A DNA stretch of 23,022 nucleotides from an uncultured Lachnospiraceae bacterium (GTDB lineage Bacteria; Bacillota; Clostridia; Lachnospirales; Lachnospiraceae). A model generated the notes under the pieces. The model did not search any database. It saw only the letters and a list, made by a program, of their open reading frames with translations, and was not told where the DNA came from. The position numbers and the translations under genes were made by a program. Location: NCBI GenBank assembly GCA_948612235.1, contig CAPFLK010000011.1:1-23022 (forward strand), read 5' to 3'. Positions within the stretch are counted from its first letter, which is position 1; every line of letters starts with the position of its first letter. Below, in pieces: positions 11,068 to 12,288 of this stretch.

Positions 11068-11731
11068 TTACACCCTCCAACTCTGCTAATCGTTTCTGAT
11101 CTGCTTCAATCCTATTCTTCAGTTCTTTAATCTCTCTTTCTCTCTCTTCTTTTTCTTTTCTCTCAGCAAGTTCTTTATCATTCATATAGAACTCATCCTC
11201 AAAATCCCAATAATCATGTTCGTCACCGGCCCAAGAACCATCTGCAATATGCACAATTTTATGTAATGAGAATTCGCAAAATACTGCATCGCATCCATGG
11301 CCGCAGCATTGCTTATCCTGTCTGTAATCTGGCATATCAGGTGTGCATTCACAATATCCATAATGTCTTGTGTCATATGTAAAGCAAAGTTTGTAATCAT
11401 AATTTGGCTTATCACTTTCTGTCCATTGATTATCTTCTGTATATGTATCTGAATATTTAACAAGATGTATGTCTACATCAATCAATCCATCATAATCATT
11501 TTGGCTATCTAAGATAGAAACATTGTAATCAGGATATAAACATAAATCCTGAATAAATTCTTTAAAAATATCTATATGTTTTTCAAAACTTTGATATAAG
11601 GATGAAATTATAAACGGGATATCAAGTTGATCATTTTTGAATTCGCCCAATTCTTTCTCCATTTTAATCACTTCGATAAGCCTGTTCAAAAAAACTTGTA
11701 ATGTATTATTCTCCAATTTCTGCATTATCAA
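11054..11731 (-). CDS. Hypothetical protein with a Cys/His-rich centre and a C-terminal charged coiled coil.
   Basis: 225-aa ORF. CECTPDMPDYRQDKQCCGHGCDAVFCEF cluster. C-terminal ERKEKEEREREIKELKNRIEADQKRLAELE. Confidence 0.45.
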   Translation of the reverse strand: MIMQKLENNTLQVFLNRLIEVIKMEKELGEFKNDQLDIPFIISSLYQSFEKHIDIFKEFIQDLCLYPDYNVSILDSQNDYDGLIDVDIHLVKYSDTYTEDNQWTESDKPNYDYKLCFTYDTRHYGYCECTPDMPDYRQDKQCCGHGCDAVFCEFSLHKIVHIADGSWAGDEHDYWDFEDEFYMNDKELAERKEKEEREREIKELKNRIEADQKRLAELEGVNEIN

Positions 11732-12288
11732 ACCTCACAATATGTACATCTAATCCACTTTTCTTTGCCAAATCAATCATGTGTTTCGTGCCTTTACTCT
11801 TACCATCCCAAAAAGCAATAAGTACACCATAATTTCCATCTGCCATAGCATACTCTGCCATTTTGGCATTTCTTACATAGCCAGATTTCCTTCCTAGTCC
11901 GCCCCCAATCAGCGGGAAATCTTACAACGTCATAACCCCGTGTATATGCAAATTGTTCACCTAGAACATCTGCTCCTTTTGCATTTCCAGATATGAATTT
12001 CACTTGACTAGGACTATTAATTAAATCTGTATCATCCATACTTCCCAAATATTCCATGATTGTATCTGATAATAATCTATAGTTTTTAAAGTCTCTACTT
12101 CCAGCTACAATTATCCTTAATTCCTTCACTATTTGCCGCCCTATTCCTTCTTTATTGTGGTAAGCAACCCATCCTAATAGCACCGATTTTATTCTGGCAT
12201 ATATACCATTAAGCTGCCAATCTCGCCACTCGATATGCATCCCCACGTAATATAGTCGAACCTTATATTCGCATATCCTATTCCCCAA
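11708..12288 (-). CDS. SLOG-family protein (DUF2493/YspA-like) interrupted by a +1 frameshift in a G5 run (plus C5 at 11902-11906).
   Basis: Annotated frame: IIVAGSRDF...GNAKGADVLGEQFA...FPADWG. After removing one G the next frame reads GLGRKSGYVRNAKMAEYAMADGNYGVLIAFWDGKSKGTKHMIDLAKKSGLDVHIV*, which matches the conserved DUF2493 C-terminus (ADW...RN..M...FWDG.S.GT). Confidence 0.55.

Follow-up and report, generated by a model that had tools for sequence, protein, structure and literature searches.

The window analysed here is a stretch of 23,022 nucleotides (nt) assigned to an uncultured Lachnospiraceae bacterium (contig CAPFLK010000011.1 of assembly GCA_948612235.1), and it carries on its minus strand a gene of the YAcAr/DUF2493 SLOG family (11706..12129) that is not encoded in one uninterrupted frame. 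We consider this gene most probably a genuine and recent frameshift pseudogene, fixed in one lineage, of a dispensable accessory SLOG gene of a large mouse-gut phage, whose host probably belongs to the Clostridia/Lachnospiraceae.

The start codon supported by homologs is the GTG at 12129-12127, the equivalent of the MKELRII start at which most homologs begin, and from there the minus strand reads GTG AAG GAA TTA AGG ATA ATT GTA GCT GGA AGT AGA GAC (VKELRIIVAGSRD). The frame shifts after codon 76, at a G5 run of the coding strand (plus-strand C5, 11902..11906), where direct reading gives AGA TTT CCC GCT GAT TGG GGG CGG ACT AGG AAG and DNA alignment places a frame-shifting insertion of 1 nt; at the site itself, frame 0 has TGG GGG CGG for the ancestral TGG GGC GGA. 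Past the run, frame 0 continues through 33 unrelated codons (RTRKEIWLCKKCQNGRVCYGRWKLWCTYCFLGW) to a premature TAA at 11800-11802, an out-of-frame tail found in the list of open reading frames (ORFs) at 11800..11901. The C-terminal 64 SLOG codons (11709..11901, minus strand), recognised by alignments and by the secondary structure of an AlphaFold2 model, follow in the +1 frame, unjoined from the N-terminal half; this frame reads GGC GGA CTA GGA AGG AAA TCT GGC TAT GTA AGA AAT GCC AAA ATG (GGLGRKSGYVRNAKMAEYAMADGNYGVLIAFWDGKSKGTKHMIDLAKKSGLDVHIVRFDNAEIGE), encodes GGLGRKSGYVRNAKMAEYAMADGNYGVLIAFWDGKSKGT and stops with the TAA at 11706-11708. In a tblastn search with the repaired product, residues 1-76 align at 12129-11902 and residues 71-140 at 11918-11709, and removal of one G yields a 140-residue protein that is collinear end to end with intact homologs (~133-140 residues). 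The window has a G+C content of 33.5% and only two G5/C5 runs in 23 kb, the other one lying at 5121-5125 within an intact ABC ATPase ORF. Reading the sequence thereby confirms the original prediction that the gene is broken at this run and that its C-terminal half lies in the +1 frame; the 193-residue repaired product proposed at the same time has to be shortened to 140 residues, since the 53 residues read from a TTG at 12288 lack homolog support.

The assignment to the YAcAr/DUF2493 SLOG family is sound. The Pfam family PF10686 (YAcAr; 66 model positions, gathering score 28.2 bits) matches the broken ORF and the repaired product alike with 49.0-49.1 bits, in the N-terminal half only, and PHROG 289 matches residues 1-136 of the repaired product with an E-value of 1e-30. 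Altogether, 2623 homologs were found for the repaired product, the best of which (P0001, 140 residues) shares 90% identity with it at 100% coverage, so that deletion of one G does restore a typical DUF2493 member, as had been claimed; a second one (P0002, 177 residues) shares 87% identity. The repaired C-terminal half is 100% identical to that of P0001 and carries the GYVRN and FWDGKSKGT motifs, which are invariant in family alignments. An AlphaFold2 model built from an alignment of 58 sequences (predicted local distance difference test score 88.7, predicted template modelling score 0.84) shows the five-stranded α/β arrangement of the SLOG fold, and its best Foldseek match is DprA (3uqz, TM-score 0.68); a profile search of PDB sequences with the repaired product gave no match. 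Pfam, PHROG, homologs and predicted fold thus agree with the earlier naming of the gene as DUF2493/SLOG. YAcAr SLOG domains have been described in jumbo phages, where they were predicted to use NAD+ for the generation of ADP-ribose-derived signals (Iyer et al., 2021; PMC7824862). A biochemical function was found for no YAcAr member in the literature searched, and action of this gene on NAD+/ADP-ribose-type ligands is a prediction.

The break recurs across many independent assemblies. The exact 146-residue broken product (P0121) is present in 66 contigs and 104 index blocks from NCBI, JGI/IMG, Logan and ENA; the exact products P0121, P0122 and P0123 are all in the protein collection, which includes start variants of 162, 109 and 85 residues and the downstream ORFs of 46 and 51 residues. 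At the DNA level, the 681-nt region 11690-12370, G5 included, is 100% identical to the window in the loci of 17 samples (L017-L032 and L039), and a low-coverage locus (L038) has G5 as well, bringing the G5 loci checked to 18. These come from separate ENA, SRA, DRA, JGI and NCBI samples of differing projects and assemblers (ERZ15142720, JGI 3300035422, ERZ14864644, ERZ941036, ERZ15035983, SRR23275325, SRR15129799, ERR13455745, ERR675538, GCA_949374715.1, SRR17182796, SRR25204558, SRR25204529, SRR24731216, DRR745526, SRR15604507, ERR675540 and ERZ14651301), and those records that name a source are mouse-gut metagenomes. Among all fetched loci, the tract is G5 in 18, G4 in nine (L001-L008 and L037) and G3, as GGGAT, in 12. 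An 85-residue product found in 18 contigs (P0126) was considered as evidence of a second, upstream lesion and rejected, its DNA being 100% identical to the window and only the start call different.

These data bear directly on the possibility, raised in the original prediction, that the extra G is a sequencing or assembly artefact and that the true sequence is G4 with an intact gene. Indels in homopolymers are indeed among the frequent errors of some platforms, and the sequence, once repaired, fits the family perfectly. However, G5 was assembled in SPAdes NODE contigs, MEGAHIT k127 contigs, Logan, JGI and a metagenome-assembled genome at NCBI, and the same 32-nt context, CCCGCTGATT-Gn-CGGACTAGGAAGGAAATC, was assembled with G4 in the eight loci of a sister lineage (L001-L008) by similar pipelines, which rules out a systematic, context-specific error. 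As far as consensus sequences show, a one-off or context-specific error is excluded, and an artefact of any kind is extremely improbable. Searches of further collections were negative: megablast of 11400-12700 against 50,697 public phage records gave no match, and exact scans for the G4-G6 context returned nothing from IMG/VR viral contigs or JGI metagenome contigs. The scan pattern works on the window and on the fetched loci, and the scanned IMG/VR and JGI collections therefore simply do not contain this phage.

The relatives of the gene also reveal where the broken allele came from. Per-position differences in the DNA alignment place an approximate crossover at 11964..11966 on the minus strand. 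The part 5' of it (12135-11965) is identical to an intact allele that adjoins a gene for an MVP-type (vault) protein (L047, P0141 type) and has 38 differences from the sister-lineage allele represented by L001. From 11965 to the stop, the sequence equals this latter, likewise intact allele (P0001 type) save for the extra G and three synonymous changes (11814, 11787 and 11781), and differs from L047 at about 40 sites. The G was inserted 59 nt downstream of the crossover, in a run that the alignment shows as G4 in L001 and as GGGAT in L009; relative to these close orthologs the frame is disrupted by +1 G against L001, with L009 and L047 intact. Neither half differs by any amino acid from its intact relative. 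Judged from this alignment, the allele is a recombinant of two intact allele types with an insertion of 1 nt, and the lesion is young compared with the divergence between alleles. We picture its history as follows: two intact alleles recombined near 11965 within one phage lineage; one G was gained, presumably by replication slippage, in the G4 run, turning TGG GGC GGA into TGG GGG CGG; and the broken allele has become fixed in the lineage and spread over many mouse-gut samples and several recombinant genome backgrounds.

In three loci the G5 block is unchanged in a recombinant background: in one, gene content differs on both sides of it (L019), and in two others there is a patch of 19 substitutions at 11084-11192 (L031 and L032). 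The main haplotype has acquired zero substitutions since the insertion, so that no ratio of non-synonymous to synonymous rates (dN/dS) can be estimated. Two rare variants, P0133 (I-to-S) and P0134 (H-to-R), are found in 1-2 contigs each, and the P0133 locus, L038, is unreliable at a coverage of ~1.6x.

The uniformity of the tract speaks to a second proposal of the original prediction, slipped-strand phase variation, in which the tract would toggle between G4 (ON) and G5 (OFF) and thereby switch the SLOG protein. In its favour, the difference is a single-unit change of length within a homopolymer, and a related lineage has the G4 state of the same local sequence. Homopolymers of contingency loci are typically 7-8 nt or longer, however, against 5 nt here, and all 18 fetched loci of the window allele have G5. 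The G4 loci, moreover, belong elsewhere: L001-L008 differ in the 5' half and are without the island that holds the MVP gene, and L037 is a separate, otherwise disrupted allele. The G4 version of the mosaic was not found among the about 15 billion proteins of the collection, from which both the repaired 140-residue and the 177-residue forms of the window allele are absent, and none of the intact proteins in the 90% clusters around P0001 and P0002 joins this N-terminal to this C-terminal half. A less biased look-up through the neighbouring 223-residue gene covered 24 contigs and likewise returned the split form only: one place was displayed, with 146- and 46-residue calls, and the remaining 23 contigs were collapsed as similar places, most of their neighbouring genes being the same. 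Because the tract is short and uniform, a phase-variable switch is unlikely, indeed highly so.

A third proposal was a programmed frameshift. In this case a tRNA-Gly would slip from GGG to GGC with CGG in the A site, at the putative +1 shift site GAUUGGGGGCGGACU (GCUGAUUGGGGGCGGACUAGG with flanks), and a programmed or leaky shift would supply a reduced, possibly regulated amount of the 140-residue protein, containing PADWGGLGRKSGY, beside the truncated product. The geometry fits, in that the downstream frame is +1 and a slip at GGG-C gives exactly the family sequence DWGGLGRK, and CGG is the third-rarest sense codon of the window genes (1.86 per 1000, 4% of Arg codons). Shifts at a slippery P-site codon followed by a rare Arg codon or a stop are well documented, as at CUU-UGA in prfB and at tandem AGG/AGA in Escherichia coli, and the C-terminal half is intact in an allele that is abundant and spread over backgrounds. 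On the other side, the site is not conserved: in-frame G4 is found in the donor allele and GGGAT in the sister allele, all other loci examined have one of these two, and the listed homologs are single ORFs of ~133-140 residues. CGG, for its part, is a mere by-product of the insertion. Apart from the G run itself there is no upstream Shine-Dalgarno stimulator at a prfB-like spacing, the downstream RNA fold appears unremarkable (z = -1.9; 7 of 200 shuffles fold as well) and has no match in Rfam, and related lineages destroy the gene outright, with no evident pressure to keep its expression.

With G5 confined to one young allele and with close and distant orthologs uninterrupted, a programmed frameshift is unlikely on account of the missing conservation, and we give recoding in this general form little credence. 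Slighter still is the chance of its most consequential version, in which the G5 allele would be alive through a +1 slip, with low, tRNA-Arg(CCG)-dependent production of full-length SLOG protein from a recoding site of recent origin that would adjust the output of an NAD+/ADP-ribose-related accessory gene; if true, this would explain the abundance of the allele, its spread over backgrounds and its unblemished C-terminal half. Separate translation of the two halves as a split protein was rejected, there being no Shine-Dalgarno-like sequence before the ATGs at 11861 or 11846.

Read as a pseudogene, then, the gene specifies from the GTG at 12129 a truncated product of 109 residues, 76 of them native and 33 unrelated. 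According to the AlphaFold2 model, strands 4-10, 43-47 and 67-70 are retained in this product along with helices 17-31 and 53-64, whereas helices 75-78, 81-98 and 112-124 are lost, as are strands 100-107 and 127-132. Of the Rossmann-like SLOG fold it is left with three of the five β-strands. The segments with GYVRN and FWDGKSKGT are missing, and the part from position 75 onwards contains 10 of the 19 residues that are invariant in the family, N87, F106, W107, S111 and T114 among them. The glycine-rich DGKSKGT loop after strand 4 may correspond to the nucleotide-phosphate-binding loop of LOG-type SLOG proteins. As both motif segments and two core strands are gone, the truncated product is very probably unfolded and inactive, and loss of function is very likely, as judged from the lost parts of the modelled fold and the lost invariant residues. 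The out-of-frame tail is Cys-rich, with a zinc-ribbon-like spacing (CKKC-13 residues-CTYC, within 11800-11901), and was considered as an overprinted zinc module; this candidate was discarded, the frame closing after 12 codons in loci of the L009 type.

The same gene has been lost in other ways in related phages. In four samples with flanks that are 90-94% identical (L033-L036), a net internal deletion of ~219 nt at about 1480-1485 of these loci, from just past ...SRDFK to just before MAEYAM, leaves a remnant of 46 residues in which invariant positions are also changed (G to R in DGNYG, GL to RS). In a single contig of 1.8 kb (L037, 1030-1150), the start codon is now GCG and a 1-nt deletion at GATTTAATT produces the scrambled N-terminus of P0025. 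Distant orthologs are uninterrupted, among them those of Eubacterium sp. UMGS1550 (68% identity), Lachnospiraceae bacterium MD308 (65% identity), Paenibacillus, Roseivirga and others. The original prediction had named split orthologs as the mark of a true pseudogene; copies of the same allele are uniformly split and two relatives are disrupted by other lesions, but the nearest other alleles are intact. A second SLOG copy was not found in the window by tblastn. Since two related lineages have been disrupted by other lesions, the gene appears to be one that can be done without here, or selection may even favour its loss.

This last option, adaptive loss, is a refinement of the pseudogene reading in which the SLOG protein would be costly or sensed by host defence and knock-outs would be selected. 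It draws on the three different lesions in related lineages (the +G insertion, the 219-nt deletion and the loss of a start codon), on the presence of the broken allele in 104 blocks as opposed to 47 and 30 for its intact relatives, and on the passage of the G5 allele into different recombinant backgrounds. However, block counts give a biased picture of prevalence, the same data would follow from neutral loss of an accessory gene that is dispensable, L037 is one short contig, and no host or defence system was identified. The three lesions and the higher block count are thus suggestive, not probative, and we regard adaptive loss as rather unlikely.

Several observations weigh against a simple pseudogene. 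The block count of the broken allele relative to that of its intact relatives, on several backgrounds, is beyond what would be expected of a deleterious knock-out. The C-terminal half has no secondary lesion, which fits a very young lesion and equally well continued selection. The GGG-CGG context in principle favours some +1 slippage. Finally, the tract lengths are assembly consensus, and a mixture of G4 and G5 within a sample could escape notice.

Upstream on this strand, with 229 nt between it and the GTG, lies a gene for a protein of 814 residues with an MVP shoulder domain (12359..14803, minus strand; PF11978, 8e-22) and weak Vault_3 and Band_7 matches; phage homologs of MVP have been reported before, in a preprint (10.1101/2023.11.10.566534). 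Terminator prediction gave nothing between the MVP and SLOG genes, and co-transcription is possible. Of the earlier description of the SLOG gene as co-operonic with MVP, the common strand and the missing terminator thus stand, but the adjacency is lineage-specific and the MVP gene is not a conserved partner: in L001-L008, the intact SLOG gene follows a C5-methylase gene and a 61-residue gene, and MVP is absent. MVP is thus part of an island of variable content that has been inserted on the upstream side of the SLOG gene. In the window this island holds a 233-residue gene, a 56-residue gene and MVP, and in L009-L016 an ADP-ribosylglycohydrolase, a 57-residue gene and MVP; in the window, it (12359-14803 with 14830-16297) lies between a C5 DNA methylase and the SLOG gene. 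MVP accompanies intact SLOG genes (L009-L016 and L047) as well as broken ones. The suggestion that the on/off state of the SLOG gene matters for the vault-like system finds no support, the linkage to MVP not being conserved, and because the neighbours of the MVP island change between lineages, guilt by association between MVP and SLOG is unwarranted.

The spacer of 229 nt between the MVP stop and the SLOG start (12130..12358, minus strand) is confined to loci with MVP and hardly differs between the window and L009. It holds an ATG at 12238 and the TTG at 12288, to which gene callers extend the SLOG ORF without support from homologs. No Rfam match was found in the spacer, and promoter-like matches are no commoner there than in shuffled sequence.

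Downstream, a Cys-rich gene of 223 residues (11054..11725, minus strand), which matches PHROG 6365 and 23520, both of unknown function, overlaps the end of the SLOG frame by 20 nt with its ATG at 11725. It follows SLOG in the related loci examined, including that of Lachnospiraceae MD308 (L041, 74% identity), and the true conserved partner of SLOG would seem to be this gene rather than MVP. The frameshift puts an upstream stop ~74 nt before its ATG, and translational coupling of the two genes, if any, would be lost.

Other genes of the accessory region specify RNA-repair enzymes, a methylase, a gp5.9-like RecBCD inhibitor domain and parts of an ABC transporter; the window genes listed below all lie on the minus strand. 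The block 6338-10785 resembles RNA or tRNA repair and comprises an RNA ligase with a PHA02142 OB domain (6338-7519), an ORF with a weak DHH/DHHA1 match (7497-8390), a CCA-adding-type nucleotidyltransferase with an HD domain (8406-9767) and an RlaP nucleotidyltransferase (9757-10785); in some related loci the block has an extra gene of 389 residues, or lacks RlaP and the CCA enzyme (L010 and L019). Transporter-like genes occupy 1984-6263 of this phage-like contig and include an NMT1-type substrate-binding domain fused to an OmpA-like domain (1984-3600), a PspA/IM30-like protein (3612-4349), an ABC ATPase (4907-5518) and an ABC permease (5502-6263). A protein of 200 residues (607-1209) matches the T7 gp5.9 RecBCD-inhibitor domain (PF25708, 1.2e-15) with its C-terminal 42 residues. 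Towards the other end, an ORF of 209 residues (21692-22321) has a weak RVT_1 match below the cut-off (7.8e-5), and L019 has an RVT_1 gene of 345 residues (388-1425) in the same neighbourhood; this region may represent an element of the retron or DGR type, either as such or as a remnant. At position 20893, the window lacks 7 nt (CATTCTA) that are found in the near-identical L017, L018, L021 and L022, the sole indel over about 20 kb, apparently in non-coding sequence between ORFs ending at 20622 and 21278. No Rfam families and no tRNA genes were found in the window.

For annotation, the calls of 146 (or 85, 109 or 162) and of 46 or 51 residues are two pieces of one DUF2493/YAcAr SLOG pseudogene. 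They are neither separate genes nor an error for silent correction, nor a switch coupled to the vault-like MVP gene. Events of this sort, in which a gene of a known family is broken by a frameshift, are ordinary, and the repeated loss of SLOG in related mouse-gut phages marks the gene as dispensable or counter-selected there.

Among known systems, the contingency loci of Neisseria, Campylobacter and Haemophilus resemble the broken gene in the single-base change of length in a coding G/C homopolymer, but the tract of the window is only 5 nt long and shows no length polymorphism on the same background. With prfB (RF2) and other +1 frameshifts it shares the +1 direction and a slippery P-site codon before a slowly decoded A-site codon; unlike these, its site is unconserved, has no stop codon and no properly spaced Shine-Dalgarno sequence, and stems from a recent insertion. 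The SLOG proteins of solved structure with which the repaired product was compared, 1) YpsA (2nx2), 2) ShosA/DprA (8zva, 3maj, 4ljk and 3uqz), 3) the SLOG domain of ThsA with 3'cADPR (7uxs) and 4) the LOG phosphoribohydrolases (5wq3 and 5ajt), share only 12-20% identity with it; ligand and activity are not transferable from them. The YAcAr family itself (PF10686, formerly DUF2493; "YspA, cpYpsA-related SLOG family"; PHROG 289), which is found in phages and Firmicutes, differs from the window gene in that the latter is interrupted after residue 76 and has no full-length product in a single frame. The likeness otherwise extends over the whole repaired length, with 64-90% identity to members of 133-140 residues, and a predicted SLOG/Rossmann-like fold and a phage accessory setting are common to the family and the repaired product.

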